A stretch of 64,000 nucleotides of DNA from an uncultured Acidobacteriota bacterium (GTDB lineage Bacteria > Acidobacteriota > Thermoanaerobaculia > UBA5066 > Gp7-AA6). This document shows, piece by piece, positions 10,132 to 32,886 of the stretch. The DNA lies in assembly GCA_963815655.1 (NCBI GenBank), contig CAWFHK010000001.1, forward strand, positions 3,930,664 to 3,994,663, given 5' to 3'. Every line of letters starts with the position of its first letter. Positions within the stretch are counted from its first letter, which is position 1. The notes beneath the pieces were generated by a model. The model was given only the letters and a program-made list of their open reading frames with translations. It was not told the origin of the DNA and did no database searches. The translations under genes and the position numbers were made by a program.

Positions 10132-10241
10132 GGCGCATCAGACTCTCATGCCGAGGCCGTGGGAGGGTTGGAAAACGTTGTCCGGGGCGCGCCGGCGCGA
10201 AATAATCCTTCCTTCGACGAGAAAAACAAGGAGAGAACGAA

Positions 10242-13481: not shown

Positions 13482-13608
13482 AGGGCTCCGCGCTCCGGTG
13501 CGCGGTGCGCGGGGCCGGACGCGGCGGCCCCGGCTTGGATCAGTGGTGCCTCGGCGGGCCTGATCCTTGTGAAGCCTGCCGGGGACTCGCGCCATAATCC
13601 GGGGTCCG

Positions 13609-16600
13609 ATGATCTGCCCCGAGTGCGGGAGTGACACGCCGGCGCCGGGGGGCCATTGCGCGGCCTGCGACGCGCCGGTCCCGCCGGACGTCGCGACCAC
13701 CGTCCGGACGCCGATCCCGAAGGGAGTGCGGGAGCCCGGGGGCACGCGGACCGCCGGCGACTCGGGGACGCGGACGCCCGCGAGGCCGCTCGGCGAGGTG
13801 GGCCGGGTCATCGGGACCTCCGCCGGGATGGACGAGGACGTGACGCTGCGGCAGGAGGCCGGCGCCCGTCCTGCCGCGGGGGGCGGACCGCTCGGCGTGG
13901 GACAGTGGTTCGGCTCCCGTTACCACGTCATCAAGCTCCTCGGCTCGGGCGGGATGGGCGAGGTCTACCAGGCGTGGGACGAGGAGCTGGGCGTCGCGGT
14001 CGCGTTGAAGGTGATCCGGCCGGAGACGATCGCGGACCCGGAGAGGGCCGCCGCGCTCCACCGGCGCTTCAAGCGCGAACTCCTCCTCGCCCGCCAGGTC
14101 ACGCACAAGAACGTCGTCCGCATCCACGACCTCGGCGAGGTCGAGGGGATCAAGTACATCACGATGCCCTACATCGCGGGGGACGACCTCGCGACGGTCC
14201 TGCGGCGCGAGGGGCGGCTTCCCGTGGCGCGCGTGCTCCGGATCGCGCGGCAGGTGGCGGCGGGGCTCGCCGCGGCGCACGAAGCGGGCGTTGTCCACCG
14301 GGACTTGAAGCCGCCCAACGTGATGATCGATCCCGACGACAACGCCGTGATCATGGACTTCGGCATCGCGCGGTCGGTGGACATGGGATCGAGCACCGTC
14401 GCCGGCGTCGTGGTGGGCACTCTCGCGTACATGGCGCCCGAGCAGGCCCGGGGCGAAGAGGTGGACCAGCGGGCCGACATCTATGCCTTCGGCCTCATCC
14501 TGTACGACATGCTGGCCGGACGGCGGCAGATGGCGGGCTCTTCGAGCGCGCTCGCGGAACTGGTGGCGCGGATGCAGCAGGCGCCCCCTCCGATCCGATC
14601 CGTCGACCCCTCGATCCCCGAGCCGGTCGAGCGCATCGTCGCGCGCTGCCTCGAGACGGACCGCGAGAACCGGTATCAGACGATGACCGAGCTGATCGCC
14701 GACCTGGACGCGCTCGACCCGGATGGCCACCGGATCCGCCCGCTTTCGCCCGGAGAAGTCCAGCCGGCGCGCCGGACGGCGGCCGTCGAGAGGGGGAGGG
14801 GGGGGAAGGCCCTCCCGGCGGGGTCGCTGAAGTGGATCGCCGTCGCGATCGCCCTCCTCCTCGCCGCGGGCGCGGCCGTCCTGATCCGCCAACGGCGGGT
14901 GGGCCGTCCGTCCGCGCCGGCGGCCGGAGCGGGCCGGACGATCTCCCTCGCGATCCTGCCCTTCCGCAACGCCACGGGGGACGCCTCCCTCGACTGGCTG
15001 GGGCCGAGCCTCTCCGAGATGCTCGGGACCGACGTGGGGCGGTCGGCGCGACTCCAGACGGTCCCCTCGGAACGGCTCCGCCAGATCCTCCACGACCTGC
15101 GGATCTCGGCGGACTCGACCTTCGATCCGGCCACGCTCCGAAAGCTGGCGGACTTCGGCAACGCCGACACGATCCTGTGGGGGCAGTTCCTGAAGTTCGG
15201 CAACGAGATCCGCATCGACGCCACCCTCCTCGACGTCAAGGGGCAGCGGTCCGTGCCGCTCAAGGCGCAGGCTCCGAGCCAGGGCGCCCTTCTCGCCGCC
15301 GTCGATCAGCTCGCGCAGGCGGTCCGCGAGAACCTCTCCTTCTCCGGGAGCGTGATCGAGGAGCTCAAGGCCTCGGCGTTCAAGCCGTCCACCCGGTCGC
15401 TCGAGGCGCTGCGGTTCTACAACGAGGGGCTGCAGCTCGCGCACCAGGACAAGAACTCCGAGGCGGTCAAGAAGTTCCAGGCGTCGATCCAGGCGGACCC
15501 CGAGTTCGCGCTCGCGTACGCGAAGCTCGCCCAGAGCTACGCGAGCCTGGGGTACGACGCGGAAGCCGAGCAGAACTCGCGCCGGGCGGTGGAGCTGGCC
15601 GAGCGGCTGCCGGCGCAGGAGAAGTACATCATCGCCGCCGGCCACGCGAAGATCGTCAACGACACGGCCAAGGCGATCGAGGCGTACGAGAACCTCGCGA
15701 AGGTGACGCCGGAGGACCCCGAGGTGAACTTCGAGCTGGCGGCCCTCTACGAATCCTCGGGCGCGTTCGATCGGGCGCGGGCCCACTACAAGAAGGTCCT
15801 GGAGCGCGATCCGAAGTCCGTCGCGGCCCTCCTCGCGTCGGGCCGCGTCGAGATCAAGGCGGGCAACCCGCAGGGGTCGCTCGATTTCCTGAACCAGGCC
15901 CTTTCGCTCGCGATCCAGCTCGAGAACGACGAGCAGAAGGCCGACGTGCTCCACGCCATCGGGGTCGCCTACAAGAGGCTGGACAAGCCCAACGACGCGC
16001 TGCGCTCCTACCGGGAGTCGCTCGAGATCAAGCGCCGCCTCGGCAACAAGCGCGGGATCGCCGTGACCCTCGGCGAGATCGCCCAGGTCCAGAAGCGGCT
16101 CGGGAACCCGGAGGCCTCGCTGGCGAGCCTCAAGGAAGCGCTGCAGATCCAGCGCGAGATCGGGGACAAGAAGGGGATCGCCACGACGCTCGTCCCTCTC
16201 GGGAACTTCTACGAGGACCGCGGGAGCTACGACCAGGCGCTGGAGAGCTACAAGGAGTCGCTGCAGATCCAGCGCGAGGTCGGCAACCAGAACGGCGAGG
16301 CGCTCTGCCTGAACAACATCGGCAACGTCTATCTCTTCAAGGCGCAGTACGACGACGCGCAGACGTACTTCGAGCGGGCGCTCCAGATCCGAGAGAAGAT
16401 CAAGAACCCGCGCGACATCGCCGACACGCTGCACAACCTGGCGGAGACCGCGACGAACAGGGGACAGTACGACGAGGCGCTCAAGCACTACCTGCGCGCG
16501 CTCTCGATCCGCCGGGAGACGGGCGACAGGCGCGGCGCCGCCATCGAGTCGCACAACATGGGGACCCTGTTCGAGTACCAGGGACAGTACGGAGCGGCCG

Positions 16601-17316
16601 TCAACGCGAAACAGGAGGCGCTCAAGGCGATGCGGGACCTCAAGGAGCAGGGGTTCTGGCTGGGCGAGATCCTGAGCGGGACCGGGCATGCCCTCGTCCT
16701 GATCGGACGGTCCGACGAGGCCCGGGGGGATCTCGCGGAAGCGGCGAAGGTCGCCGACGGGCTCGGGAACAAGGCCCTGACCGCGCAGATCCTGAACTTC
16801 GAGGGGGACCGGCTCTTCTACCGCGGCGAGGCCGCGGCGGCGCGGCCCGTGTACGAGCAGGCGCTCCAGACCGCTTCGAAGATCGGGGACCGGCGCCTCG
16901 AGCTGCTGTCCCGGGTGAACCTCGCGAAGGCCGCGATCGGGGAGGGGCGGCCCCAGCCCGCGATCGACACGCTGAAGAAGCTGGGCGACGAAGCCGACGC
17001 GCTCGGCCTGAAGTATCTCTCGGTCGACAGCGCCGTCTCCCTCGGGCAGGCGCTCATCGGCGCGAAGCGCGCGCGGGAGGCGCGCCAGGAGCTCGATCGC
17101 GCGCTCGCGAGGAGCGAGAAGTTCGGCCTGCGCGCCCTGACCGCGCGCTGCCATTTCCTGCTCGCCGCCGCGCTGCGGGCCACGGGCAGCGCCGCCGAGG
17201 CCTCCCGGCACCTGGGCGAGGCCCGCCGGGCCGTCGAGGAGATCCGCAAGGAGGCGAAGACCGACGACGTCGTGAAGCGCGCCGACCTCGCCCCGATCCT
17301 CGCGGAGGCCCGCTGA
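13609..17316 (+). CDS. Ser/Thr protein kinase with N-terminal zinc-ribbon, one TM segment and C-terminal TPR repeat array (1235 aa)
   Basis: Zinc ribbon CPECG...CAAC. Hanks-type kinase motifs: GSGGMGEVY, VALK, HRDLKPPN, DFG, APE. TM segment WIAVAIALLLAAGAAVLI. Many TPR-like repeats (LGNKRGIAVTLGEIA..., etc.). Confidence 0.85.
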   Translation: MICPECGSDTPAPGGHCAACDAPVPPDVATTVRTPIPKGVREPGGTRTAGDSGTRTPARPLGEVGRVIGTSAGMDEDVTLRQEAGARPAAGGGPLGVGQWFGSRYHVIKLLGSGGMGEVYQAWDEELGVAVALKVIRPETIADPERAAALHRRFKRELLLARQVTHKNVVRIHDLGEVEGIKYITMPYIAGDDLATVLRREGRLPVARVLRIARQVAAGLAAAHEAGVVHRDLKPPNVMIDPDDNAVIMDFGIARSVDMGSSTVAGVVVGTLAYMAPEQARGEEVDQRADIYAFGLILYDMLAGRRQMAGSSSALAELVARMQQAPPPIRSVDPSIPEPVERIVARCLETDRENRYQTMTELIADLDALDPDGHRIRPLSPGEVQPARRTAAVERGRGGKALPAGSLKWIAVAIALLLAAGAAVLIRQRRVGRPSAPAAGAGRTISLAILPFRNATGDASLDWLGPSLSEMLGTDVGRSARLQTVPSERLRQILHDLRISADSTFDPATLRKLADFGNADTILWGQFLKFGNEIRIDATLLDVKGQRSVPLKAQAPSQGALLAAVDQLAQAVRENLSFSGSVIEELKASAFKPSTRSLEALRFYNEGLQLAHQDKNSEAVKKFQASIQADPEFALAYAKLAQSYASLGYDAEAEQNSRRAVELAERLPAQEKYIIAAGHAKIVNDTAKAIEAYENLAKVTPEDPEVNFELAALYESSGAFDRARAHYKKVLERDPKSVAALLASGRVEIKAGNPQGSLDFLNQALSLAIQLENDEQKADVLHAIGVAYKRLDKPNDALRSYRESLEIKRRLGNKRGIAVTLGEIAQVQKRLGNPEASLASLKEALQIQREIGDKKGIATTLVPLGNFYEDRGSYDQALESYKESLQIQREVGNQNGEALCLNNIGNVYLFKAQYDDAQTYFERALQIREKIKNPRDIADTLHNLAETATNRGQYDEALKHYLRALSIRRETGDRRGAAIESHNMGTLFEYQGQYGAAVNAKQEALKAMRDLKEQGFWLGEILSGTGHALVLIGRSDEARGDLAEAAKVADGLGNKALTAQILNFEGDRLFYRGEAAAARPVYEQALQTASKIGDRRLELLSRVNLAKAAIGEGRPQPAIDTLKKLGDEADALGLKYLSVDSAVSLGQALIGAKRAREARQELDRALARSEKFGLRALTARCHFLLAAALRATGSAAEASRHLGEARRAVEEIRKEAKTDDVVKRADLAPILAEAR

Positions 17317-17475: not shown

Positions 17476-18597
17476 TCAGGGGACCAGTCCGGTCCAGGTC
17501 CCGAACGACGTGAACGGGCCGTTGCACGAGAAGTCCCGCCCCCTCACGAGGACGTCCTTTGTCTTCTTCGGCCCCGTGCCGGGGGACGTGGCGAGATCGA
17601 GCGTCGCGCCCGGCATGACCAGGGAGAGGGTCGGCGCGCCCGGCTCGTTGACGCGGCTGTTGGCCGCCGCGTCGTTGAACCAGAGCCTGGCCGTGCCGGA
17701 GGTGTGGCTGTTCCCGACGCAGGAAACGCGCGTTGAGACCTCGATGCTCATCGCGTCGCCGGATGTGAACGCGCTCGACGGGAGCGACAGCGGGATCGTC
17801 CGCAGGTTCGCGTTGTTGAACCCGCTGCTGCCGCCGAGAACGCCCAGGAGCGTGCCGGAACTGACGGGAGTCCCGTTCTGCGTGACGATCGCCTTCAGGT
17901 CGAACCGGGTTCCGACGTCGTCGCTGTTCTTCAAACCGAGCCAGACCCGGGCCGCCGTCGAGGTGGGTCCGGTCTGGTCCACCGCTTCGAAGTCGGAGAA
18001 CCCGTCGCCGCTCCCGCTCACGCCGGCGTCGCTGTTGTGGTCCCCGATCGCGAAGACCTGGTCGGTGATGTCCTGCGTGTAGCAGTCGAAGCCCAGCGTG
18101 CAGGTTCCATCCGGCGGGACTCCGTCGAGCGGCGCCCGGTAGAGCCGCACGTTGTGAAGCAGGGCGAGAGTGGGGAAGTCCCAGAAGATGCGCACGGTCA
18201 CGTTGCCCGTGTAGTGGTCCGGCGACGGCGGGCTGGTGACATGGTAATAGCCGCACGTGCCCAGGCTCGTGTCGGAGGTGGCCCCAACGTACCGGATGCA
18301 GTCGACGGGAGCCAGCGGTGGTATGACGCGGGCGTCCAGTTCCGGGTCGGTGATCGGGATGAACTCCACGTTGAGGTCGAAGGGATCGACGACGTTCACG
18401 GTGAACTTGATGAAGTGGTCCCCGAACTGGTACTTGTTCGTCTGGTGGTCGGCATCGAACCGGTTGCAGATTCCGCCGCCGCTTCCGCTCCCTTCCCCGA
18501 TGCACGGGTTCGTCTGGGCCGAGGCCGGGCGGATGGAAGCCAGCGCCACGAGCGCCACGCCGCAGATGACGGTCTTGATCTGTGTCCTTCGTTCCAT
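17476..18597 (-). CDS. secreted hypothetical protein
   Basis: ATG preceded by GGAGGAGAAAT. Signal peptide (VALVALASIRPASAQT). Cys-rich, Gly/Ser/Thr-rich extracellular-like composition. Confidence 0.55.
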   Translation of the reverse strand: MERRTQIKTVICGVALVALASIRPASAQTNPCIGEGSGSGGGICNRFDADHQTNKYQFGDHFIKFTVNVVDPFDLNVEFIPITDPELDARVIPPLAPVDCIRYVGATSDTSLGTCGYYHVTSPPSPDHYTGNVTVRIFWDFPTLALLHNVRLYRAPLDGVPPDGTCTLGFDCYTQDITDQVFAIGDHNSDAGVSGSGDGFSDFEAVDQTGPTSTAARVWLGLKNSDDVGTRFDLKAIVTQNGTPVSSGTLLGVLGGSSGFNNANLRTIPLSLPSSAFTSGDAMSIEVSTRVSCVGNSHTSGTARLWFNDAAANSRVNEPGAPTLSLVMPGATLDLATSPGTGPKKTKDVLVRGRDFSCNGPFTSFGTWTGLVP

Positions 18598-18721: not shown

Positions 18722-19978
18722 CTACTCGAAGAGCCGGCCCCCCGGCTCGAGCGACTCGAAGTACTCCAGGTAGCGCCGCCTCTGCTCCGGCTCGCCGTAG
18801 AGCCGCTCGGCGGTCTCGCGCGCCTTCCGCGAGGCGGCGGCGTACTTCCCGGGGTCGTCCCAGAGCTCGCAGACCGCCTCGAACCACGGGCGGATCTCCT
18901 CCGCTTCCGGAACCACGAGGCTCTTCTCCGGCAGCCTGTCGGGGACCGGGAGCACGCGCCCGGCTCCGGCGACCGTCTGCGGCAGTCCCCCGCGGTCGCT
19001 CACGAGCGGCGGGATCCCGTTGATCATCGCTTCCGCCGCGACGCGGCCGAAGGGATCGGGAAACAACGAGGGGACGAGCAGGAGCTTCGTCAGCGCGAAG
19101 AAGTCGGCCGGCCGCGGCAGCGGGGGAGCGGCCATGATCTGAGGGTACTTTCCGAAGTCGATGCCGGGAATGGCGTTCAACGCCCCCGCGCTCGAGGCCG
19201 ACTGCACGACGAGGATCGGGATGTCGGGGCGGGTCGAGCCGAGCATGTCGGCGAGCCGCGCGAACACGCCGGCGCCCTTGTGCGGCGAGGGATTGACGTA
19301 TGTGACGAAATTCCGCGACTCTTCCGGCGCAAGCACCTCGGACCAGTCGATCGGCGAGGCGATGCCGACGCTGCGAAGCCCGATCTTCTCGCGGTACAGG
19401 TCGGAGAGGTACCGGCTCGTGGTGAAGACGTGATCCACGTGCTCGAAGAAGCGCCGGTCCTCGTACCCGTGGTTGCGGAGCGTGAAGACCGTCGCGACAC
19501 CGCGGGCCTGCGCGCGCCGCAGGGATTCGGCGACGACCGGATGCGAACCGTAGGTCAGGAGCAGATCGGGCCGGAACTCGCCGAGCTGTTGATCGAGCAG
19601 GAAGAGGAACTGCTCGGATTCGAGGTGGTCGGGATTCCGCCCCTCGTTGTGCCGGGTCAGGAGCATCGTGACCGCCGCGCCCCCGAGCGCGAAGTGGACG
19701 GTCGGCCGGCCGACCATCCTGTTGGCGGGTTTCCGAACCGACCGCACGAACGCGGGCGCCGGCGGCTGGCGCGCCACCTCGACGCCGAGGCCGGCCAGGT
19801 GCTCGTCGAGGTCGGGCGGCCGGGCGTCGAAGCGGGCCGTGGCGAGCACCCGGCAGTCGTGGCCCGCCTCCGCCAGCCACTTCATCAGGATCCGGATGCT
19901 GCGCGCGGCGCCGCTTTCCCTGTCGGTGTACGCGTTGTGAACGGCGAGAAGGATCCGCACGAGCCCACGCGGTACCAC
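18722..19978 (-). CDS. glycosyltransferase family 1 (GT4, GT-B fold)
   Basis: N-terminal ILLAVHNAY...GG and C-terminal E..G.P...SD.GG motifs typical of GT4 retaining glycosyltransferases. Confidence 0.8.
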   Translation of the reverse strand: MVPRGLVRILLAVHNAYTDRESGAARSIRILMKWLAEAGHDCRVLATARFDARPPDLDEHLAGLGVEVARQPPAPAFVRSVRKPANRMVGRPTVHFALGGAAVTMLLTRHNEGRNPDHLESEQFLFLLDQQLGEFRPDLLLTYGSHPVVAESLRRAQARGVATVFTLRNHGYEDRRFFEHVDHVFTTSRYLSDLYREKIGLRSVGIASPIDWSEVLAPEESRNFVTYVNPSPHKGAGVFARLADMLGSTRPDIPILVVQSASSAGALNAIPGIDFGKYPQIMAAPPLPRPADFFALTKLLLVPSLFPDPFGRVAAEAMINGIPPLVSDRGGLPQTVAGAGRVLPVPDRLPEKSLVVPEAEEIRPWFEAVCELWDDPGKYAAASRKARETAERLYGEPEQRRRYLEYFESLEPGGRLFE

Positions 19979-20218
19979 CGACGTGCCCGCCCGTCAAGAG
20001 CGATGCGGGCTCCGAGTCGTCTGCCGGTGGACCGTAACACCCGAATCGCAAGTGGCGCTCTCGAGGCGCGTGTTCCTTTCGAATCCGCCCCGGGGTCGGG
20101 CCGGCCTCCCTCCGTCGCACGCGACGGCCCAGCCGCGAAAGACAGAACCTGGCCGTCGCTTGTCGTTCAGTCGCACTGAAAGCGAGGCGATTGCAGTCGC
20201 GTCCCCGCTCCTTCACTC

Positions 20219-20751
20219 ACGCTCCTCCGGGAGGGGGCCCGTTGAGGTTGCAGAGGTTGATGTTGGGAGTGAAGTGCCCCGGGCCCGTGGACTGGACGAG
20301 GCCGAGGATCTCGACGGTGCAGGCTTCCAGGTGCACGAGGTCGGCGCCCGGGTCGGCCCCCTTGCTGCTGACGCCGCCGTCGTCGTCGATCAGCAGATCG
20401 CAGCAGGCCTTGCGATGTTGTGCCCCGCGTAGCGATCGACGGCAGCGTCCTTGCCGCCGACGGTGATCTGCATGGAGCAGGCGCTCGCGCCCGAGGGTGA
20501 GGCGGGATCGTCGCCCGGGATGTGGCCGTTCGAAGTGATGATCAGATCACCGGCGACCGCGTACGGGCCGCAGAGAGAAACCGTCGTGCTGATGACCGTG
20601 GGTAAGAGGAGGCGGAAGGGCCAGGCTCCGTTTTTCCCCGCAACAGGAAGAATCCCGCCGCCAGCAACGCAATCAACAGCCACGTTTCCCGGTTTCTCTT
20701 CAGTGCCGCGATGTTCACCCTCCTCCGAAGTTCTTGATGAGCGGAGCCCAT
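20219..20751 (-). pseudogene. membrane-anchored small secreted protein disrupted by two frameshifts
   Basis: A true ATG at 20751 gives an N-terminus with a TM anchor ([37 protein letters not shown]...) that stops at ~20542. The protein-like sequence continues in a second frame (...TVISTTVSLCGPYAVAGDLIITSNGHIPGDD...) and then a third (...CCDLLIDDDGGVSSKGADPGADLVHLEACTVEILGLVQSTGPGHF...*). Confidence 0.35.
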
Positions 20752-20884: not shown

Positions 20885-22069
20885 ATGAAGAGAAGAGGCG
20901 GTACTGGAGCGCGGATCGGTGTCTTCGCCGGTGCCCTGGCCTCAGCCGTCCTGGTCCTGGGCGCAACCCGGGGCCCCGCACCGGTGGACGTCTTGACGAT
21001 CGGGACGGTGAACGTCTCGTCCGGCACGGGCCAGGTCAAGGTCCCGTTCTCGATCCAGGACAACACCGGCACCCTGATCGGCCGCGACAAGGGCGCGGGC
21101 CTGCGGATCACGATCTTCGCGGCGCAGGTGGTCTACGGGCCCAACGCCTGCATCGACACGCCGTCTTCGGCGAGCGCGCGCATCGACCTGACCGGCGGCA
21201 TCCTCGCCAGCCAGAGCGCGGACCTTGACAGCCGCGTCAAGGTGGCCAACACGTCGCAGACCTGGTTCTACTCCTCGGCGGAGTCGAACGGGCTCATCCC
21301 CTTCACGGCGGCGGCCAGCCCCGGAGACCTGATGGGACAACTGGTCTTCGACCTGACCGGCTGCCCGGCCGGCCCGATCAGCCTGACCGTCACCGCGTCC
21401 GGCGCGGCGCAAGCCCTGCTCAGCTCCGACAGTGGCATGTCCGAGACTTCCGGCAGCGGTCTCACGGTCGTCAACGGCGCGATCAACATCACTCTCCCCA
21501 CGAGCACGCCGACGAACACTCCGACCAATACGCCGACGAATACGCCCACGAGCACGCCGACGAGGACGCCGACCGGCACGCCGACCAACACGCCGACACT
21601 CACGCAGACGCCGACGAACACACCGACGTTTACGCCGACGAACACGCCCACGATCACGCCGACGGTTACCTTCACGAACACGCCGACGCTCACGCCGACC
21701 GGCACGCAGTCGCCGACCTTCACGCCGACGCTCACGCCGACGAACACGCCGACGAACACGCCGACGGCCACGGTGACGAACACGCCGACGAACACGCCGA
21801 CCGGCACTCCGCCGCCGACGATCACGCCGACGTTCACGGCGACGAACACGCCCACGATCACGGCGACGTTCACGGTGACCAACACCCCGACGAACACGCC
21901 GGTCGCGACGGTGACGCCGACGACGACCCCGATTCCGCCCCCGACCACGACGCCGGTTCCGGGAGCGATTCCGGCAAACATCCCGACGCTGGACGGACGG
22001 TCGCTCGCTTTCCTCGCCGCGCTCCTCGCGGCTGCCGGCCTGCTGCTGTCGAAGCGCCTTTCCGGGTAG
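20885..22069 (+). CDS. IPTL-CTERM sorting-signal protein with extended Thr-Pro (TPTNTP) repeat linker
   Basis: Signal peptide ([27 protein letters not shown]). About 150 aa of TPTNTP-type repeats, encoded by an 18-bp DNA tandem at 21490-21960. The C-terminus is [30 protein letters not shown], i.e. an IPTL motif, a TM helix and a basic tail. Confidence 0.7.
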
Positions 22070-22079
22070 GAGTACGATC

Positions 22080-24104
22080 ATGACAAGTTCCTCGAGTGAA
22101 TGGAGAAAATGCTCAGGGGCTCGTCGGGCGCCGGCGGCCAGGCTCGCCCTGCTCGTCCTGCCCGCGCTTCTCCTGGGGTCTCGTCCGGGATCGGCCGCGA
22201 CCCCCGCCCGGAAAGCACGAGTGGACGCCGTCATTCCGCGAGAGGCCGTCCAGGCCCTGTCGTCGGAGCAGAGGACCACCCCGCTCTCCCTGTCCGTATT
22301 TCGCGGCCTCTCGAAATCGGAGGCCGAGGTCGTCTTCGGGGCTTCACAGGCAGCCGTCTACGCCGAGAAGGGGGGAATCGTCTACGCTCTGACGACCTCC
22401 TCCGCGCCGCGCGCGACCCGGATGTTGCTGGCCCGGCGCCCGTCGCTCACGCCGACGGACCCGTGGGCAAAGGCCCGCTTCCTGAGAACCACAACGGCCG
22501 AGGCGTTCGCGTCCGCCGTCAACTCTCTCCTGCCGGGCCTCACCCGGGGCGCGTACGGAGCGTACCTGACGAAGTTTCCCTACACGCTCGAGCTATCCGC
22601 GGCGGCCGCGGCGTCCCTGCCGAAAGGGCCTGCAGCCCGACCGGCGCGCCCCGCGGCGCCCAGGACCGCCGGGACCGTCCTGTCCGAGACGTTCGAGACC
22701 GACCCGTTCGCGAGCCGGTGGGCCCAGACCAGCCTGGACGGGGACGGGGGCACGATCGAGTGGGGCTGGACGACTTGCGACGCGCATACCGGCTCGCACT
22801 CGATCGACGGCGTTCGGGGCGGCACGACCGGGAGCACGATCGGGTGCGCCTCGGCATACCCCGCGAACCAGTTCAACCTCATCAACTACACCACTTACCT
22901 CGACATGACCGGAGCCTCCACCCAGGCCTGGATGGAAGTCTTCATGAACATGGTCACGGAGAACAACCCCAACAACGACTTCGTGGGGATCCTCTTCCGC
23001 GACCCGCTCCATATCTCCCAACTCCACGGGTTCCGTTACTCCGGGGATCAGGCGGGGGCGTGGTGGCGATTCCTTTTCAACCTGAAGGAGTGGACGCCGC
23101 ACCTCGACCTCACGCTCCACGACGACAATGTCCTCGCCCTCGTGTTCGGGTCCAATGCCACGACCCAGTCCGGGTTCGGGGCCCGCGTCGACGACCTCAC
23201 GATCACGACGGACACGACCCCGGGGATGACCTGCAACGCGGCGGTCGACATCGCGTATGGACAGGTGCCTGTCTCCGTCACGCTGACCGGCAGCACGACC
23301 GGCGGGACGGGGTCGCCGACCTTCATCTGGGACCCACTCGACGGCAGCTCCCAGGTCGCGGGTCAGGTTCTGATGCACACGTACACCGTGCCCGGAGAGT
23401 ACCAGCCCGACATGTTCGCCACCGACACGGTCAGCGGCGTCACGACTCGCTGCACGGCGTCCGTGCACGTCACGGCCGCGCGGAGCGCCATGGGCGTCGA
23501 CCGCCCGAACGACGTCTGCAGCGCCGCCAAGCTCATCCCCACCAGTTCATTCAGCGAAGCCTTCTCGGCGGTCGGCTACACGCAGGACCCCGACGAGCCC
23601 CAGCCCTGCGGGCCGGCGATCGGCGCCACCGCGTGGTACAAGTTCGTCGCTCCTTCCACCGGGACGGCGCTCATCTCGCTCTGCTCATCCAATTACGACA
23701 CCGTCCTCGGCGTGTACACCGGGTCCTGCGGCAGCTTTACGACCCGGGGCTGTAACGACGACGACGCGTCGTGCGGCGGCAACCCCGCCGCCTCGAAGCT
23801 CACGCACGTCCAGATGACGAACGGGACCACGTACTGGATCCAGGTGGGCGCTTCCGGCGGCTATGGCTCACAACCCGGAAATGCCCAGATCGACTTCACG
23901 TTCACGCCGGGAGTCAACGGCGACGCGGACGGGAACGGGATCGTCAACGGGCTCGATGTCGTCTACCTCATCAACTACATCTTCGCGGGAGGCCCCGCCC
24001 CCCTGGGGCCGGTGGACGCGAACGGGGACGGGAACGTCAACGGACTCGACATCGTCTACCTCATCAACTACATCTTCGCGGGAGGACCGGCGCCGGTGCC
24101 CTGA
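22080..24104 (+). CDS. secreted protein with PPC (pre-peptidase C-terminal-like) domain and C-terminal dockerin-type repeat pair
   Basis: Signal peptide. PPC-like segment (AWYKFVAPSTGTALISL...YDTVLGVYTG...TTYWIQVG). Two dockerin-like Ca-binding repeats (DADGNGIVNGLDVVYLINYIF and DANGDGNVNGLDIVYLINYIF). Confidence 0.7.
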   Translation: MTSSSSEWRKCSGARRAPAARLALLVLPALLLGSRPGSAATPARKARVDAVIPREAVQALSSEQRTTPLSLSVFRGLSKSEAEVVFGASQAAVYAEKGGIVYALTTSSAPRATRMLLARRPSLTPTDPWAKARFLRTTTAEAFASAVNSLLPGLTRGAYGAYLTKFPYTLELSAAAAASLPKGPAARPARPAAPRTAGTVLSETFETDPFASRWAQTSLDGDGGTIEWGWTTCDAHTGSHSIDGVRGGTTGSTIGCASAYPANQFNLINYTTYLDMTGASTQAWMEVFMNMVTENNPNNDFVGILFRDPLHISQLHGFRYSGDQAGAWWRFLFNLKEWTPHLDLTLHDDNVLALVFGSNATTQSGFGARVDDLTITTDTTPGMTCNAAVDIAYGQVPVSVTLTGSTTGGTGSPTFIWDPLDGSSQVAGQVLMHTYTVPGEYQPDMFATDTVSGVTTRCTASVHVTAARSAMGVDRPNDVCSAAKLIPTSSFSEAFSAVGYTQDPDEPQPCGPAIGATAWYKFVAPSTGTALISLCSSNYDTVLGVYTGSCGSFTTRGCNDDDASCGGNPAASKLTHVQMTNGTTYWIQVGASGGYGSQPGNAQIDFTFTPGVNGDADGNGIVNGLDVVYLINYIFAGGPAPLGPVDANGDGNVNGLDIVYLINYIFAGGPAPVP

Positions 24105-24130: not shown

Positions 24131-24165
24131 GAAGCCCCGGCGCCGCCGGGGCTTCATTGTTGTTG
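24131..24165. terminator. intrinsic terminator hairpin between convergent genes
   Basis: GC palindrome AGCCCCGGCGCCGCCGGGGCT followed by TCATTGTTGTT. It lies between the stops at 24104 (+) and 24175 (-). Confidence 0.5.
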
Positions 24166-24174: not shown

Positions 24175-25518
24175 TCATCGGCCGGACACGACGCTCGCGG
24201 AGGCCGGGCCGGGATTTCCTGCGAGCAGGACCCCGGGGAGATCTCCGCGCAGCTCGAGCAGCCGGGCGCGCGCGGCGACGAGGCCCTGGCTCGCCTGGGA
24301 TTCGTCGTCCGCGGCTCTCGCCGCGGCGATCTCGGCGCGGTCGATGGCGTCGGGCTCGCCGCGGCCTTCGTCGGCAAGCGCCTTCTCGACGGCCAGCGCC
24401 TGCGCCGCGACCGCGAGGGCCCGCGTCGCGAGCTGCCTCTGCAACGCCGCCTTCGCCGCCTCGATCTCGGCGCGCCGCACCGCGAGCTCGACGTCGCGCT
24501 CGCGGGCGCGCCGGTCCGCCCGGATCCTGTCGAGGCGGGCCTGCGCCGCGGCCTGTCCCTGCGCGAGGCGTCCGCCGGTCCAGAGCGGCACGGCGACCGA
24601 GACTCCCACCGCCCAGTCGTTCGCCTTGAACTTGACGAAGTACTGGTCGAAATTGTTGAAATTCGCCAGCCGCATGTACTGCCCCTCCGCCTGGACGACC
24701 GGGAGCCAGGCGCGCCTCTGGAGGAAGGCGGCGCGGTCGAGCGCGGCCTCCTGCCGCGAGAGGGCCGCGAGTGCGGGATCCGCGGCGCGCGCGGCGGCGA
24801 GATGGTTGCCGGGCGCGGGCTCGGGGAGGGCCGCGAGCGGGTCCTCGGCGGCGTCGAGAGCCTCGCCGCGCGGCGCGTCCACGAGCCAGGCGAGCTCCAG
24901 CCGGTCGAGCTCCGCCTCGCCTTGGCGGTCGGCCAGCGCCTGCTTGGCGCGCGCGACGTCGAGGCCCGCCTGCGCAGCGTCGAGGCTCGTCCGCCGCCCT
25001 TCGCGGGCGAGCGCGGTGACGCGGCGCAGCATCGCCTCGCGCGCCTCGAGCTCCCTCCGGGCGTTGCCGATCCTCCGGCGATCCTCCCAGTTGCGCGCAT
25101 AGGAGAGGACGAGAGCGCGCGCCGTCGCGGAGCTCGCGAGGGCGGAGGCCCCGGCCAGGCCTTCCGCGCCGGCCTGCGCTTCGAGGGCCTCGGCGCGGCG
25201 GGCGGGGTCGTAGAGAGTCTGGTGGACCTCGAGGCCGAACACGGCGGGGACCCTCCCCGCGACCGCGACGGGAAGGCCGCTCGAGTATCCGGGAGTCGTG
25301 GTCGCGAAGGCCTGGGGATGGAATCCCGCGGCGGCGGCTCCGGCGCGGCCCGCCGACTCCGCGGCCGCGGCCCGCGCCGACGCGGTCTCCGGCGCGTGGG
25401 CCAGGGCCAGCTCCGCGGCGCGGCGGAGCGTCAACGGTGCGGCCGCCGGCGCCTGGCCGGAAACCGGGAGAGCGGGCAGCGCGGCGGCGAAGAGCAGGGC
25501 GAGTCCCGGTCTATTCAT
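24175..25518 (-). CDS. TolC-family outer-membrane efflux protein
   Basis: Signal peptide. Two-repeat alpha-helical/beta-barrel OMF composition with Ala/Arg-rich coiled-coil heptads. Last gene of an MFP-permease-OMF operon. Confidence 0.75.
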   Translation of the reverse strand: MNRPGLALLFAAALPALPVSGQAPAAAPLTLRRAAELALAHAPETASARAAAAESAGRAGAAAAGFHPQAFATTTPGYSSGLPVAVAGRVPAVFGLEVHQTLYDPARRAEALEAQAGAEGLAGASALASSATARALVLSYARNWEDRRRIGNARRELEAREAMLRRVTALAREGRRTSLDAAQAGLDVARAKQALADRQGEAELDRLELAWLVDAPRGEALDAAEDPLAALPEPAPGNHLAAARAADPALAALSRQEAALDRAAFLQRRAWLPVVQAEGQYMRLANFNNFDQYFVKFKANDWAVGVSVAVPLWTGGRLAQGQAAAQARLDRIRADRRARERDVELAVRRAEIEAAKAALQRQLATRALAVAAQALAVEKALADEGRGEPDAIDRAEIAAARAADDESQASQGLVAARARLLELRGDLPGVLLAGNPGPASASVVSGR

Positions 25519-26716
25519 AGCGGAGAGCCTCCGTCGGGTTGAGATGCGCGGCGCGGTAGGCCGGCACGACGCCGAACACGACCGTGACGCCGCAGGAGAA
25601 GAGGAACGCGAGGAGAGCGGAGAGTCCCGAGACCCGGATCAGGAAGGTCTTGACGAAGGGGCGCAGCAGGAGCGGGAGGCCCATGCCCACGACGACGCCG
25701 ATCAGGGCGCCGATCGCGCCGAGCATCAGGGCCTCGAGCAGGAACTGGCGGAGGATGTCGCGCCGCCGGGCTCCGACCGACATGCGGACGCCGATCTCCC
25801 GGGTGCGCTGCTCGACCGAGGCGAGCAGGATGTTCATGATCCCGACGCCGCCGACGACGACCGAGACGGCCGCCGCGGCGATGAACGCGGCGATCAGGCC
25901 GAAGGAGATCGTGCGGGCGACGCGGATGACTGTCGTCATGGTCTTGACCTTGAAGACCGAGCCCTGGTGGTGGCGCTCCTTCAACAGCTCCTCGACCGCC
26001 GCCGCGGCGTTCGGGATCTCGGAGAACTCCCGCACCTCGGCGAACACCGTGTCCACGCGCCGCGTCGGCGTGAAGAACCAGGCGACGGTGACCGGGATGA
26101 AGATCGAATACGGGGTGACTTCTCCCTGGCCCATTGTGTCCACGGGCTTGTCGAACTCGCCGACGACCTGGAAGGTCATCCCGAGAGTGCGGATCGTCTT
26201 GTCCGGGGAGTCGTCGTTTCCGAAGAGGTCGTGGTAGAGCGGCTGGCTGACGACGCACACCTTCGCGCGCTGGGAGACGTCGTCCTCGTCGAGGAACCGG
26301 CCGCGCAGGATCCGCAGATTCTTCCGGACGGAGGCGTAGTTGGGCGTCGTCCCGAGGACGGCGAGGTCCAGGGCCCGGGAGAGGACGGAGACGGTGCCGT
26401 GGAGCTGGACAAGCGGAGTGACGCCGGAGAAGAGATCGGCGCGCGCCTCGACGGCGCGCACGTCCGCGTCGGTGATCCGGTCCTCCGTCGTGCGCGAAAC
26501 GCCGGCCGTGACCGTTCCCTCGTAGCTCGCCCAGATCAGGTGCGACCCGACCCCTTCGATCTGCGACATGACGAAGGTACGACCGGTCAGTCCCAGCGCG
26601 ACGATGATGATGATCGCGGACGTCCCGACGACGAGCCCCGCCAGCGTCAGCGCGGTCTGGACGGGATGCGTCCGGAACCGGTGCATCGCCGTCTCAAACG
26701 TTTCCCGCGTGAACAT
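25511..26716 (-). CDS. ABC transporter permease, FtsX/MacB-type (no fused ATPase domain)
   Basis: N-terminal TM, a large periplasmic domain, then 3 C-terminal TM helices of the FtsX fold (...GIMNILLASVEQRTREIGVRMSVGA...). Overlaps tolC by 8 bp. Confidence 0.8.
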   Translation of the reverse strand: MFTRETFETAMHRFRTHPVQTALTLAGLVVGTSAIIIIVALGLTGRTFVMSQIEGVGSHLIWASYEGTVTAGVSRTTEDRITDADVRAVEARADLFSGVTPLVQLHGTVSVLSRALDLAVLGTTPNYASVRKNLRILRGRFLDEDDVSQRAKVCVVSQPLYHDLFGNDDSPDKTIRTLGMTFQVVGEFDKPVDTMGQGEVTPYSIFIPVTVAWFFTPTRRVDTVFAEVREFSEIPNAAAAVEELLKERHHQGSVFKVKTMTTVIRVARTISFGLIAAFIAAAAVSVVVGGVGIMNILLASVEQRTREIGVRMSVGARRRDILRQFLLEALMLGAIGALIGVVVGMGLPLLLRPFVKTFLIRVSGLSALLAFLFSCGVTVVFGVVPAYRAAHLNPTEALRYE

Positions 26717-27913
26717 CTACGAACGGCGATCCGGGGACGTTACGCGAAGACCGTCCGACAGCGGAACTGTTCCGGGCAAGATGACAACGTCGTTGTCCCG
26801 CAAGCCGTTCGTGATCTCGACGTCGTTGACGCCGATGAGGCCGATCGTGACGTCGCGCCGGCGCGCGCGGCCGTCCTCGAGCCGATAGACGAAGCGGCGG
26901 TCTCCGTCGCGGAAGAGGGCCGCGCGGGGAACGGCCAGGGCGCCGTGCTTCTCTCCCGTCACGATCTGCACGTTGACGGAGGCGTTGGGGGGAAGGGACA
27001 GGGTCTTGTCGGAGATCTCTCCCAGCACCTCGCCCACCTCGCGGCCGGCGGCTTGCCGGACGCCGGGCGACACGGCGAGGACCTTCCCCTCCCAGCGCCG
27101 GTCGGGCAGGCCGTCGAACAGGACGATGAGCCGCTGGCCCACCGCGACGCGCGGGAGGTCCGGCTGGTCCACGCGCGCCCGCACGCGCAGGTGCTCGGGG
27201 TCGGCCACGCCCGCGACCACCTGCCCGGCCGAAACGGTCTCTCCCGCCTTCCGCGGCAGGCCGTAGACGGTCCCCTCGAACGGGGCGGCGACGGTGAGGG
27301 CGGCCACGCGGCGCTCGAGCTCCCGCGCGGAGGTTTCGGCGAGCTCGAGACGGGACGGACCGGCGCCCGACCCGGCCAGCGATTCGAAGCGAGCCTGCGC
27401 CACGCGGAGGCGCTCGACTCCCTGGCGGTAGGCGAGCTCGTCCGTCTCGTAGGTCGCTCGGGGGATGGCCGACTGGCTCAGGAGCCGGGCGTCCGCCTCG
27501 AAGGTCTCCCTCGCGCGGGCCGTCTCCCGCTTCTGCTGCTCGAGATCTCCCTCCGCGCGGATCCTCTCCTCGGAGAGCTGGGCGGCCGTCGAGCGCGCCT
27601 GCAGAGCGGACTGGGTCAGCTCCGGGCTCTGGAGGACGACGAGCGGCGCCCCCTTCGCGACGCGATCCCCCTCGCGCGCGGGGATGGACGCGACCGTCGC
27701 CGCCTCGGGTGCCCGCAGCTCTCCGCCCGCCGGCGGCTCCAGGCTGCCGTCGGAGAGGATCGGAACGACGAGGTCCCTGCGCGCGACGCGCGCGGTCTGG
27801 ACCGGCACGCCGCTCGGGCCCCGGAAAGCGACGGCCGCGAGGATCACGACGAGCAGGACGGCCATGCCGGCCGCCCAGCGCCAGGGGATCCGGAAGCCGG
27901 GGTCTTCCTTCAA
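26717..27913 (-). CDS. efflux periplasmic adaptor (HlyD/MacA-family membrane fusion protein)
   Basis: N-terminal TM segment, coiled-coil hairpin and beta-barrel/lipoyl-like segments. The start may be TTG at 27913 or the internal ATG at 27865. Confidence 0.75.
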   Translation of the reverse strand: MKEDPGFRIPWRWAAGMAVLLVVILAAVAFRGPSGVPVQTARVARRDLVVPILSDGSLEPPAGGELRAPEAATVASIPAREGDRVAKGAPLVVLQSPELTQSALQARSTAAQLSEERIRAEGDLEQQKRETARARETFEADARLLSQSAIPRATYETDELAYRQGVERLRVAQARFESLAGSGAGPSRLELAETSARELERRVAALTVAAPFEGTVYGLPRKAGETVSAGQVVAGVADPEHLRVRARVDQPDLPRVAVGQRLIVLFDGLPDRRWEGKVLAVSPGVRQAAGREVGEVLGEISDKTLSLPPNASVNVQIVTGEKHGALAVPRAALFRDGDRRFVYRLEDGRARRRDVTIGLIGVNDVEITNGLRDNDVVILPGTVPLSDGLRVTSPDRRS

Positions 27914-27980: not shown

Positions 27981-29372
27981 TCATTCGTTCTCGGAACGCC
28001 GGAGAGGCCGGGTTTCCTCCTCGACGTCGGCGCCGTCTTCGTAGTAGTCGAGCCCGGAGTGATCGAGGACCTCTTCGCCCACGAGAATCCGCAGCGTGTT
28101 GGTCAGCTTCAGGTGCTGGATGAAGAGGTCGTGCTCCGGCTTCAGGTCCGGGCGGGACATGGGCGACTTGAAGTAGAAGGAGAGCCACTCCTGGATGCCG
28201 GAGAGCCCGGCGCGCTGCGCGAGATCGAGGAAGAGGATCAGGTCGAGAACGATCGGCGCGGCCAGGATCGAGTCGCGGCAGAGGAAGTCGATCTTGATCT
28301 GCATCGGCTGCCCCAGCCATCCGAAGATGTCGACGTTGTCCCACCCCTCCTTCGCGTCTCCGCGCGGCGGGTAGTACTCGATGCGGATCTTGTGGAAGTA
28401 GTCGCCGTACAGCTCGGCGTACAGGTCCGGCTGCAGGATGGCGTCGAGGACGGCGACCTTGGACAGCTCCTTGGTCCGGAAGGAGCCGGGGTCGTCCAGC
28501 ACCTCGCCGTCGCGGTTGCCGAGAATGTTGGTGGAGAACCACCCCTTCAGGCCCAGCATCCGCGCCTTCAACCCGGGCGCGAGGATCGTCTTCATGAGCG
28601 TCTGTCCGGTCTTGAAGTCCTTGCCCGCCACCGGGAGGCCCATGGCCTTCGAGAGCTCGACGAGTGCGGGGATGTCCACGGTCAGGTTCGGAGCGCCGTT
28701 GGCGAAGGGGACGCCCGCCTTGAGGGCCGCGTAGGCATAGATCATCGACGGGGAGATGTCGGCGGCGTTGCTCCGCAGACCCTTCTCGAACGCGGCGAGG
28801 GTCTCGTGGGTGGCGCTCGCTTCGAAATACGCCTCGGTCGAGCCGCACCAGACCATGACGGCGCGGTCGACGCCGCGCGTCCTGCGGAAGCTCTCGATGT
28901 CCGCGACGAGCGCTTCGGCGAGCTCCATTCTTGTCGCCGCCTGCTTCGACTGCTTCGCCTCGAGGCGCACGACGTACCGCTGGTCGAAGACGCCGGGCCA
29001 TGGAACGAGGCTCTCCAGCTCCTCGCGCACGGGGGCGAGGGTCGCCGGCGGCAGCACGCCGGCCGCGGCGGCCGCCTGCCAGGCGTTGTCGGGGAAGATG
29101 TCCCAGGCGCCGAAGACGAGGTCCTGGAGCCGCGCGAGCGGGACGAGCTCCTGGATCGGCACGAACCTCGGGTGAGTCCGCTTTCCCAGGCGGAGCTTCT
29201 GCATCTGGGTCAGCGAGCCGATGGGGCGGGCGAGCCCCTTGTTGATCAGGTGGACCCCGGCGACGAGCGTCGTCGAGATCGCTCCGAGGCCCGGCAGGAG
29301 GACGCCGAGCTTCCCGCGGGCGGGCGCGATCTCGCGGGCAAGCTCCGGGTAGAACGAGGTGCGGTCGCTCAC
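27981..29372 (-). CDS. myo-inositol-1-phosphate synthase (MIPS)
   Basis: N-terminal Rossmann NAD motif (LGVLLPGLGAISTTLVAGV). Conserved MIPS blocks (...NGAPNL..., ...LCRDSILAAPIVLDLI..., ...SKVAVLD...). GTG start with GGAG 9 nt upstream, overlapping the upstream stop as GTGA. Confidence 0.8.
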   Translation of the reverse strand: MSDRTSFYPELAREIAPARGKLGVLLPGLGAISTTLVAGVHLINKGLARPIGSLTQMQKLRLGKRTHPRFVPIQELVPLARLQDLVFGAWDIFPDNAWQAAAAAGVLPPATLAPVREELESLVPWPGVFDQRYVVRLEAKQSKQAATRMELAEALVADIESFRRTRGVDRAVMVWCGSTEAYFEASATHETLAAFEKGLRSNAADISPSMIYAYAALKAGVPFANGAPNLTVDIPALVELSKAMGLPVAGKDFKTGQTLMKTILAPGLKARMLGLKGWFSTNILGNRDGEVLDDPGSFRTKELSKVAVLDAILQPDLYAELYGDYFHKIRIEYYPPRGDAKEGWDNVDIFGWLGQPMQIKIDFLCRDSILAAPIVLDLILFLDLAQRAGLSGIQEWLSFYFKSPMSRPDLKPEHDLFIQHLKLTNTLRILVGEEVLDHSGLDYYEDGADVEEETRPLRRSENE

Positions 29373-30496
29373 GCGGGACTCCGAAGGACGTTTCCGCGCC
29401 CCGCGCGCGCCAGCGCCAGGAGCGAAAGGAAGAAGAGAGGAGCCCCGACCGCGGCGAGAATCAGGAACCAGCGGACGAGGCCAAGGGCCGCGAGGATGAC
29501 GACGAGGTAGATGAAGTCCCGGCGCGCGAGGGCGTCGGCCACGCGCGAATAGCGCGACGGCACGCGGGCGACCGAGGTGAAGAGCGGGCCTTCCCGTGTC
29601 CTGGCCGGCGCCATCGTCTGAGAATAGACGAATCCGGCCGAAGCCACGGTCCCCAGGATCGCGCCGGCGCCGAGCGCGAGCGGCCACGCGGAGCCCGAGC
29701 CCCGGCTCCATCCGATGGCGATCGCGCCGAACACGGCGGAATGGACGACGTTATCTCCCCAGAAATCGAGCGTGCCGCCCAGGCGCGATTCCTGGAACTT
29801 CAGGCGCGCCAGCTCGCCGTCGCAGCCGTCGACGATCGAATGCGCGAGGAAGAGGAGCGCGCCCGCGACATCGAGCGCCGGACGGGCCGGGAGGAAGAGA
29901 ACAGCTCCCACGAGGCCCAGGCCCACGCTCGCGAGCGTCATCGCGTTGGGAGTGACCCGCGTCGAGGCGAGGCGGCGGGAGATGGCGAGCGAGATCTTCC
30001 GGTCCACGTGGCGCGCCATGAAGCCGTCTTGCTGCTTGACGAGAGTCGCGAGCAGCCACATCTGCGCCTTCGGGAGGTCGGCCGGGCTCGAGACGGCGAA
30101 GCGCGATCCTTCCCCGGGAGGCTCCGGGAAGGGCGCGAAGGGGCGCGAGCGCAGGACCCCGGCGAGATGGTCCGACGGGCCGAGGTCTCCGAGGACGGCG
30201 TCCGGGTCCGCGGTCTCGAGCGCGGCCGCGCACACCCCGTCGGAATAGAGCCGCCCGGGTTCGAGCGGCATCTCTCGAAGCGAGCGCAGCCAGGGCACGG
30301 TCGGGATGACGGACCCCGGGAGCAGGACGACCCGCCCGGGGGAGAGCGAACCGGGCGCCCGCGCCTCGGCCGCGGGAAGAATCCGGCCGAAGCCGGCGCG
30401 CTCGGCGGCCTTCACGATTCTCGTCGTCAACGGCAGGCCCAGGACGATGGTCTCGCGCGGGACCGGCCCGGCCAGGATCACGAGGGTCGCGCTCAC
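29369..30496 (-). CDS. CDP-alcohol phosphatidyltransferase with ~150-aa N-terminal cytoplasmic extension
   Basis: CDP-OH-PT signature D-G-x2-A-R-x8-G-x3-D-x3-D (DGCDGELARLKFQESRLGGTLDFWGDNVVH). 5-6 TM helices. The N-terminal domain has a weak nucleotidyltransferase-like Gly-rich start (LVILAGPVP). Confidence 0.7.
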   Translation of the reverse strand: MSATLVILAGPVPRETIVLGLPLTTRIVKAAERAGFGRILPAAEARAPGSLSPGRVVLLPGSVIPTVPWLRSLREMPLEPGRLYSDGVCAAALETADPDAVLGDLGPSDHLAGVLRSRPFAPFPEPPGEGSRFAVSSPADLPKAQMWLLATLVKQQDGFMARHVDRKISLAISRRLASTRVTPNAMTLASVGLGLVGAVLFLPARPALDVAGALLFLAHSIVDGCDGELARLKFQESRLGGTLDFWGDNVVHSAVFGAIAIGWSRGSGSAWPLALGAGAILGTVASAGFVYSQTMAPARTREGPLFTSVARVPSRYSRVADALARRDFIYLVVILAALGLVRWFLILAAVGAPLFFLSLLALARAGRGNVLRSPA

Positions 30497-30500
30497 ATTG

Positions 30501-31541: not shown

Positions 31542-31555
31542 CGTCCTCCGGGCGG

Positions 31556-32821: not shown

Positions 32822-32886
32822 GTGACGCTGCTCGTCGGCGAAGACTCTCCGGGAGCGCGGGCCGGGGCCTCCCTCCCGATGTTTGC

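Follow-up and report, generated by a model that had tools for sequence, protein, structure and literature searches.

The question raised by a two-gene locus in the genome of an uncultured soil Acidobacteriota bacterium is where a dockerin finds its partner when Pfam recognizes no cohesin beside it. Cohesin–dockerin complexes are among the strongest protein–protein connectors; they provide the attachment by which cellulose degraders build the cellulosome and are widely used in synthetic biology, and it is a recurring puzzle that many genomes encode dockerins without any recognizable cohesin. The Acidobacteriota are dominant in soils, and their cell surface is poorly understood. The locus lies in a 64-kb stretch of DNA (the window; G+C content 69.6%) and consists of gene 1 (20885–22069, + strand; 394 amino acids) and gene 2 (22080–24104, + strand; 674 amino acids), both of which are open reading frames (ORFs) with codon bias. 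Gene 2 encodes a secreted, multidomain, dockerin-bearing protein that is the proposed cargo; gene 1 encodes a signal peptide, a cohesin-like module, a threonine/proline-rich (Thr/Pro) stalk and an IPTL-like C-terminal anchor, and its product is proposed to be a single-cohesin anchoring scaffoldin. An initial annotation of this DNA would have sought the cohesin partner elsewhere in the genome; the candidate found here lies at the N-terminus of gene 1 itself, and the two genes probably constitute a cognate, minimal, non-cellulosomal cohesin–dockerin display operon in a diderm member of the Acidobacteriota.

The fold predicted for the gene 1 N-terminal domain is that of a cohesin. A putative Sec signal peptide (20885–20974, + strand), recognized by inspection from its basic n-region and hydrophobic core (MKRRGG..hydrophobic..ATRG), is followed by a module of about 170 residues (20981–21493, + strand; residues 33–203). 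A sequence search identified 50 close relatives of the N-terminal 203 residues at 60–89% identity, and an AlphaFold2 (AF2) model of residues 1–203, computed from an alignment of relatives, is all-β with a mean predicted local distance difference test score (pLDDT) of 83.7, mostly above 90 at residues 30–203 and below 50 over the signal peptide (residues 1–29). In a Foldseek comparison of this model with the PDB, the best 18 matches were all cohesins, headed by CohA2 of Clostridium acetobutylicum (E = 5.7e-7, probability 1.0), and the top scores belonged to type I cohesins that had been crystallized with dockerins (4uyp, 6kgc, 5nrk, 3ul4, 3kcp, 2vn5, and 1ohz). The predicted structure is a nine-stranded β-sandwich jelly-roll that is superposable on solved cohesins, the nearest being those of type I, at a sequence identity of about 12–17%.

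Profile searches point in the same direction. A search of 1.84 billion representatives recovered 219 related clusters at E ≤ 1e-3. A profile of the close family (A1) gave one spurious signal-peptide match and no cohesin among PDB sequences; a profile of 35 diverse family members (A6) matched 6kgc_A, the C. acetobutylicum CohA2, at E = 4.7e-4, and cohesins made up 11 of its 12 matches at E ≤ 10. For two of nine distant family members, the Pfam Cohesin model was the best sub-threshold match (15.9 and 16.7 bits; cutoff 24.1). The sequence homology to solved cohesins that these profiles indicate is specific, if marginal. Predicted fold and family profile together identify a divergent cohesin module of type-I-like character in gene 1, and because this domain has the cohesin fold, the likely partner of the gene 2 dockerin is encoded next door.

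The C-terminus of gene 2 is, judged by its sequence, a bona fide type I dockerin (23910–24101, + strand; residues 611–674) composed of two near-identical F-hand repeats that are ~90% identical at the DNA level. The Dockerin_1 model (PF00404) matches residues 614–665 with 41.6 bits (gathering cutoff 22.9), bearing out the two dockerin-type calcium-binding repeats of the initial annotation. Each repeat comprises a 12-residue Ca2+ loop and a helix, starting with DADGNGIVNGLD.. at 23922 and DANGDGNVNGLD.. at 24015; the loops are D615-A-D-G-N-G-I-V-N-G-L-D626 (23922–23957, + strand) and D646-A-N-G-D-G-N-V-N-G-L-D657 (24015–24050, + strand), and each is followed by the helix (V/I)VYLINYIFAGG. Both thus display the duplicated segment of dockerins, with Asp or Asn at loop positions 1, 3, 5, 9, and 12 and then a helix, and the loops are kept in four orthologs. 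When PDB sequences were compared with a profile built from gene 2 together with its orthologs, the matches were to 3ul4_B (E = 1.2e-7), 1daq and 2mte (1.5e-4), and 6kg9 and 6kgc (about 2–3e-4); 3ul4_B and 6kgc_B pair with 3ul4_A and 6kgc_A, cohesins that rank among the closest structures to the gene 1 model. The view that dockerins are unusual outside cellulosomal organisms was overstated, as many uncultured lineages, Zixibacteria among them, have close dockerin homologs, and non-cellulosomal cohesins and dockerins are documented (PMC9012536, citing Peer et al. 2009). Most of what a word-index search found for the dockerin module was short fragments belonging to other phyla, with no protein of the host genome.

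The two modules are linked by position. Six-frame hmmsearch and a motif scan found exactly one cohesin-like and one dockerin module in the window, and these lie in neighboring genes. Genes 1 and 2 are separated by 10 nucleotides (nt); the AGGAG Shine-Dalgarno sequence of gene 2 (22068–22072, + strand) overlaps the gene 1 stop codon and is positioned 7 nt upstream of the ATG, no terminator-like site was detected at the junction, and a terminator-like hairpin (24131–24155, + strand) with an 11-bp stem (9 GC pairs) and a T-rich tail is located 27 nt past the gene 2 stop codon. Taken together, the short gap, the AGGAG overlap, the uninterrupted junction and the 3′ hairpin fit co-transcription, and the overlap of AGGAG with the stop codon suggests that the two genes are translationally coupled as well.

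Pairing of the two genes is conserved in all five loci that have a gene 2 ortholog (the window, L001, L004, L005, and L006): at each of them a gene 1 ortholog, with a Thr/Pro stalk and a tail consisting of an IP[TM]L motif, a transmembrane (TM) helix and basic residues, lies directly upstream. L001 is 96–99% identical to the window at the DNA level; protein identity is 82% for L004, which comes from an NCBI metagenome-assembled genome (MAG; GCA_936417165.1), 68% for L005, and 73% for L006, and the identity of gene 2 orthologs ranges from 94 to 68%. Orthologs of gene 1 were identified in these four loci and in the protein P0001; exact-sequence look-ups of the gene 1 protein, the gene 2 protein, and P0001 returned no record.

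Linkage between the cohesin-like domain and dockerins recurs at more distant loci. In the Acidobacteriota MAG CAVUIX01, four cohesin-like paralogs within ~11 kb surround an SBBP-repeat protein with a two-repeat C-terminal dockerin (L002:8706–9761); this β-propeller protein is non-homologous to gene 2, and the dockerins of the two proteins have the helix motif YLINY(I/L)FAGGP in common. Among 21 mostly short metagenomic loci with the domain, an SBBP-dockerin gene adjoins a cohesin-like gene in L018 and L020, and a single ORF in L026 encodes a two-repeat dockerin, a short linker and a cohesin-like domain, a dockerin–cohesin-like fusion of the same kind as in adaptor scaffoldins. The dockerin regular expression used on these loci gave 0 false hits when run on about 98 kb of control sequence. 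The partner domains found in the 61 family members scanned include SLH in three, Dockerin_1 in three and IPTL-CTERM in five (the window protein included), and about 18 of 142 family representatives have C-terminal tails of the form [I/V]P[T/A]x followed by a TM helix and basic residues. The partner-domain architectures of distant members mirror those of anchoring and adaptor scaffoldins.

The domain is found in a variety of other contexts. The C-terminal partners of the ~170-residue domain in the 50 relatives are a Thr/Pro stalk with an IPTL tail, a Thr/Pro stalk with IPT/TIG, FG-GAP repeats, and an unannotated domain of ~125 residues. The last is the commonest partner in close relatives (P0002, P0003, P0006, P0007, P0009, and others); it contains the motifs PCR..DTRN, TINF/Y..G.TRANNA, and DVNGYF, ends in DVNGYF[QR], and has no Pfam match. 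The four paralogs of CAVUIX01 (L002/L003; CAVUIX010000024.1, about 5900–17000) share the cohesin-like N-terminal domain and differ in their C-terminal modules, and one of them (L003:1594–4477), seemingly frameshifted, runs into NHL/Vgb-like β-propeller repeats and has a very long Thr/Pro linker. The N-terminal domain looks like a shuffled cassette.

In gene 1, the cohesin-like module is followed by a (TPTx)n stalk of 162 residues (21494–21979, + strand; residues 204–365; 45% Thr, 23% Pro, and 9% Asn), in agreement with the Thr/Pro linker described initially. The further claim that this linker is encoded by a perfect 18-bp tandem does not hold: the array is degenerate, with a period of 12 nt (33 copies, 70% matches) and a super-period of 102 nt (4.1 copies, 81%) by Tandem Repeats Finder, and its longest exact repeat is 27 nt. 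The expectation that the stalk varies in length was borne out when orthologs were compared. The gene 1 proteins of the window, L004, L001, and P0001 are 394, 383, 360, and 327 residues long, with stalks of different length, and global alignment of the window and L001 versions of gene 1 places one extra 102-nt (34-codon) unit at 21655–21756 (+ strand) that is in the window and not in L001. Strain-variable stalk length suggests that the display distance is tuned or is under diversifying pressure. O-glycosylation of cellulosomal Thr/Pro linkers is known, and by analogy with them the stalk may be O-glycosylated.

The repeat that encodes the stalk has a mirror image on the opposite strand, a Val/Gly-rich ORF of 237 codons (21268–21981, – strand) with high G+C at third codon positions, which was rejected as a real gene. 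Public gene calls annotate this mirror ORF at L005:3–356 (– strand) and L006:191–466 (– strand), in place of the genuine 3′ end of each ortholog of gene 1, and the homologs P0025, P0039, P0042, and P0047 have frameshifts within the Thr/Pro repeat; the repeat is thus a trap for both gene callers and assemblers.

The stalk leads into the tail of gene 1 (21980–22066, + strand), which consists of an IPTL motif, a hydrophobic helix of ~20 residues and the basic residues KR at the C-terminal end; by motif scan, it is the one IPTL-type tail in the window. Together with the signal peptide, this motif–TM–basic arrangement is the layout of IPTL-CTERM proteins, as had been claimed; how the tail scores against the family models is taken up below.

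Cellulosomes are recognized by dockerin-borne carbohydrate-active enzymes and a multi-cohesin scaffoldin that bears a carbohydrate-binding module (CBM). Gene 1 has a single cohesin, and no glycoside hydrolase, carbohydrate esterase, polysaccharide lyase, CBM or other enzyme domain was recognized in gene 1 or gene 2; the module is therefore non-cellulosomal. The N-terminus of gene 2 is signal-peptide-like by inspection and is followed by a helical region (about residues 45–180) and by a domain of ~185 residues (22662–23219, + strand; about residues 195–380) that has no assigned function, is highly conserved in the five orthologs, and gave no Pfam, NCBIfam or PDB sequence match. A borderline PKD-like Ig domain (23265–23471, + strand; residues 396–464) scores 24.8 bits with PKD_4 (cutoff 27) and 19.8 bits with PKD (cutoff 23.5), has precomputed PF18911 matches in the orthologs P0051, P0053, and P0054, and weakly matches the PKD domain of ColH. 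Between it and the dockerin is a Cys-rich β-sandwich (23508–23846, + strand; residues 477–589) that is weakly galactose-binding-like (GBD_T9SS_assoc, 12.8–18 bits; cutoff 27). The PPC domain attributed to this protein in the initial annotation was not recovered, PF04151 giving no match at E ≤ 10. An AF2 model of gene 2, computed from a five-sequence alignment, had a pLDDT of 31.7 and was unusable. Our guess is that the cargo is a binding or adhesion protein.

The following sequence of events is proposed. The gene 1 protein would be exported through its Sec signal peptide and held in, or sorted to, the envelope by the motif, TM helix and basic residues of the IPTL-CTERM-like signal, with its single cohesin at the tip of an extended, possibly O-glycosylated Thr/Pro stalk of ~160 residues, the length of which would shift by gain or loss of repeat units. 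The gene 2 protein would be exported separately, and its dockerin would dock onto the gene 1 cohesin in a Ca2+-dependent manner. Repeat symmetry in known dockerins permits two binding orientations, and the near-identical repeats of gene 2 would likewise allow a dual binding mode. Docking would tether the body of gene 2 (helical N-region, ~185-residue domain, PKD-like domain, and Cys-rich β-sandwich) away from the envelope. The support for Ca2+-dependent binding of the two proteins is indirect and lies in the adjacency of their genes, the recurrence of such linkage and a single fusion. That the pair serves display or assembly at the cell surface, as the initial annotation suggested in general terms, is supported here more strongly than was claimed, but its cohesin element had been missed.

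Several observations weigh against this proposal. The five loci in which the pair is conserved are all closely related, which makes the conservation of adjacency phylogenetically shallow; of the distant family members, L029 and L030 (on contigs of 7–12 kb) have no dockerin nearby, and the flanks of L007 and of one JGI contig are too short for their neighborhoods to be assessed. The Pfam Cohesin model (PF00963, cutoff 24.1 bits) gives no match to the gene 1 domain even at E ≤ 10, and the structural assignment is carried by a single confident AF2 model out of five, the pLDDT values of the others being 55–70. Since most close paralogs of the cohesin-like domain have other C-terminal domains and no anchor, the domain can occur outside anchoring proteins. 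No function is assigned, as described above, to the body of gene 2. At the other end of the proposed module, the gene 1 tail is sub-threshold on both family models, scoring 19.0 bits with TIGR04174 (cutoff 20.5) and, with PF18203 (cutoff 20.8), 16.8 bits as part of the whole protein and 18.2 bits as the tail alone. The tail of the closest ortholog, P0001, passes TIGR04174 at 22.5 and reaches 20.6 on PF18203, that of L006 scores 15.9 and 19.5 on the two models, respectively, and the IPML tail of L004 matches neither; the layout attributed to the tail therefore stands, but on sequence scores the membership of gene 1 in IPTL-CTERM is borderline. In those ORFs of the window that were scanned with Pfam, no sortase, exosortase or rhombosortase domain was detected, in line with the initial observation that the window has no sortase, and we know of no sorting enzyme for the IPTL-CTERM signal. 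Finally, the route of a C-terminally TM-anchored protein past an outer membrane is unexplained, and the module could operate in the periplasm.

These observations leave room for other explanations, of which the most serious accepts both modules as genuine and holds that the neighbors are not partners: the gene 1 cohesin would take other dockerins, such as the SBBP type, the gene 2 dockerin would bind another paralog, and adjacency would reflect co-regulation of envelope proteins. Relatives do hold several cohesin-like paralogs together with other dockerin proteins, one cellulosomal cohesin typically accepts many dockerins, and the YLINY(I/L)FAGGP helix is common to the gene 2 and SBBP dockerins. 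Such promiscuity, however, is compatible with the neighbor being a partner, and the tight adjacency at five of five loci, the translational-coupling anatomy and the fact that the sole cohesin-like and dockerin modules in 64 kb are neighbors make this explanation unlikely. Doubt can also be placed on the function of the domain rather than on its choice of partner. If the gene 1 domain were cohesin-folded and did not bind dockerins, acting as an adhesin, carbohydrate-binding or structural module, gene 1 would encode a stalked surface or S-layer-type protein, and gene 2 would be unrelated, its dockerin-like repeats forming a Ca2+-stabilized tail. The missing Pfam Cohesin match, the many anchorless paralogs that join the domain to unrelated modules, the dockerin-free distant loci, and the precedent of a similar-sized IPTL-CTERM protein that is an S-layer protein (PMC8671808) would all be accommodated. 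This is nevertheless quite unlikely, in that the family profile matches solved cohesins by sequence, dockerins are repeatedly co-located with the domain and once fused to it, and its partner domains include SLH and dockerin, as in scaffoldins.

The explanation closest to the initial annotation is improbable. It makes gene 1 an IPTL-CTERM O-glycoprotein that is modified by an upstream GT4 glycosyltransferase, is processed by a sortase-like enzyme encoded elsewhere and happens to lie beside a dockerin/PPC protein whose cohesin is also elsewhere. The tripartite sorting-signal tail is indeed there, and orthologs pass TIGR04174; cellulosomal Thr/Pro linkers are, as general knowledge has it, O-glycosylated; and a GT4 gene is present about 900 nt upstream of gene 1 (18722–19978, – strand). 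It is, however, on the opposite strand, in L001 a gene for a 442-residue protein intervenes between it and the pair, and the neighborhood of the pair in L004 lacks it; because this adjacency is not conserved, the GT4 was excluded from the system and rejected as a functional partner. The cohesin, moreover, sits in gene 1, the PPC match is missing, and no sortase-like gene was found in the window. We therefore retain, as the probable reading, a cognate cohesin–dockerin pair encoded by gene 1 and gene 2. Outer-membrane-factor genes lie nearby, so the host of this pair is presumably diderm.

A cognate pair of this kind has counterparts among characterized systems. OlpA and OlpC of Clostridium (Acetivibrio) thermocellum, which have a type I cohesin, a linker and SLH repeats (PDB 3ul4, 4dh2), resemble gene 1 in the combination of one type-I-like cohesin, a linker and an envelope anchor and in the direct capture of a type I dockerin protein, which is what is proposed for gene 1. 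They differ in that their SLH repeats serve a monoderm, whereas gene 1 belongs to a diderm and ends in an IPTL-like TM signal; furthermore, the gene 2 cargo is without a glycoside hydrolase or CBM, the pair forms a two-gene operon, and the gene 1 cohesin is below Pfam detection. ScaE of Ruminococcus flavefaciens (PDB 2zf9) likewise places a tripartite sorting signal C-terminal to a cohesin, but the cohesin is of type III and the signal is LPXTG, whereas the fold of the gene 1 module is nearer to type I and its IPTL signal is that of a diderm, with no sortase known or found. Cohesins and dockerins outside cellulosomes are documented, including in anaerobic methanotrophic (ANME) archaea (PMC9012536), and these modules, among them a cohesin of Archaeoglobus fulgidus (2xdh) and the toxin-complex cohesins of C. 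perfringens (2vo8, 2w1n, 2o4e), share with the present pair the role of a general protein–protein connector outside cellulose degradation; the present case differs in its occurrence in the Acidobacteriota, the divergent, unannotated cohesin subfamily, the IPTL-type anchor and the direct adjacency of the two genes. For the anchor, the closest precedent is mela_00855, an IPTL-CTERM S-layer protein of the diderm Methylomirabilis lanthanidiphila, which has been located at the cell surface and whose tail was undetected in the mature protein (PMC8671808). Like gene 1, it has an N-terminal signal peptide, a C-terminal IPTL motif, a TM helix and basic residues; its role in an S-layer lattice differs from the docking stalk proposed for gene 1, and gene 1 is just below both HMM cutoffs. 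What sets the present pair apart is that its anchor is of the IPTL type and belongs to a diderm, that its cohesin subfamily escapes Pfam, that the cargo is non-enzymatic and that the two genes form a tight operon.

The locus thus places a cohesin that is invisible to Pfam directly beside a dockerin gene, in the Acidobacteriota. If the pair binds, it would provide diderm bacteria with a simple display cassette of two genes, a family of more than 200 uncharacterized protein clusters with a role, the orphan IPTL-CTERM signal with a concrete function, and protein engineering with new orthogonal cohesin–dockerin pairs. A wider proposal, which is offered tentatively and is on balance doubtful, is that the gene 1 domain founds a large, unannotated, divergent cohesin family (at least 219 clusters at 50% identity, none of them covered by Pfam) that supplies the "missing" partners of dockerins in non-cellulolytic diderms, with IPTL-CTERM as a dedicated envelope anchor that would be the Gram-negative counterpart of SLH- and sortase-anchored scaffoldins; the orphan IPTL-CTERM signal would thereby gain its first functional context.

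The surroundings of the pair vary among strains. The gene that separates the GT4 from gene 1 in L001 (L001:6471–7799, – strand) encodes a secreted protein of 442 residues with a weak DNRLRE match (29.1 bits, cutoff 34) and a Thr/Pro linker of its own; it is absent from the window, where short flanking remnants align (window 20002–20451 with L001:6358–8477), an instance of strain-level content variation. Convergent with gene 2 (24175–27913, – strand) are genes for a TolC-like OEP, a MacB-type permease (MacB_PCD/FtsX) and a membrane-fusion protein (HlyD), with no adjacent ATPase gene seen. These genes are kept beside the pair in L001 and L004 and not in L005; they were considered as an exporter of the pair, a candidacy that was dropped because they do not adjoin the pair in L005 and for want of any other link.

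Beyond them, 27981–35285 (– strand) encodes a myo-inositol-1-phosphate synthase, a CDP-alcohol phosphatidyltransferase, a GFO/IDH/MocA oxidoreductase, a class III aminotransferase and an NTP-transferase, which may form a pathway to a lipid or solute derived from inositol; an LPG_synthase_TM protein (35215–36228) follows this cluster. Isoprenoid/hopanoid-type genes occupy 36248–47924, with Pfam support for a radical SAM protein with DUF3463 (46545–47924) and a B12-binding radical SAM protein with DUF4070 (41649–43250), and with ORFs that by eye are DXS-like (37216–39165) and squalene/phytoene synthase-like (43705–44610); this region reads as ordinary chromosomal context rather than as a mobile element. 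On the other side of the pair, a Ser/Thr kinase of 1235 residues with a long TPR array (13609–17316, + strand) and a secreted protein of 373 residues with no family match (17476–18597, – strand) are kept with the GT4 in L001 and are not beside the pair in L004. Farther upstream, 10242–13481 (+ strand) encodes a secreted BNR/Sortilin-Vps10 repeat protein of 1080 residues, a similar gene for which lies upstream of the pair in L004, and 6614–8020 (+ strand) encodes a Neprosin-domain protein (PF03080, 64.6 bits), a member of a peptidase family that is best known from plants.

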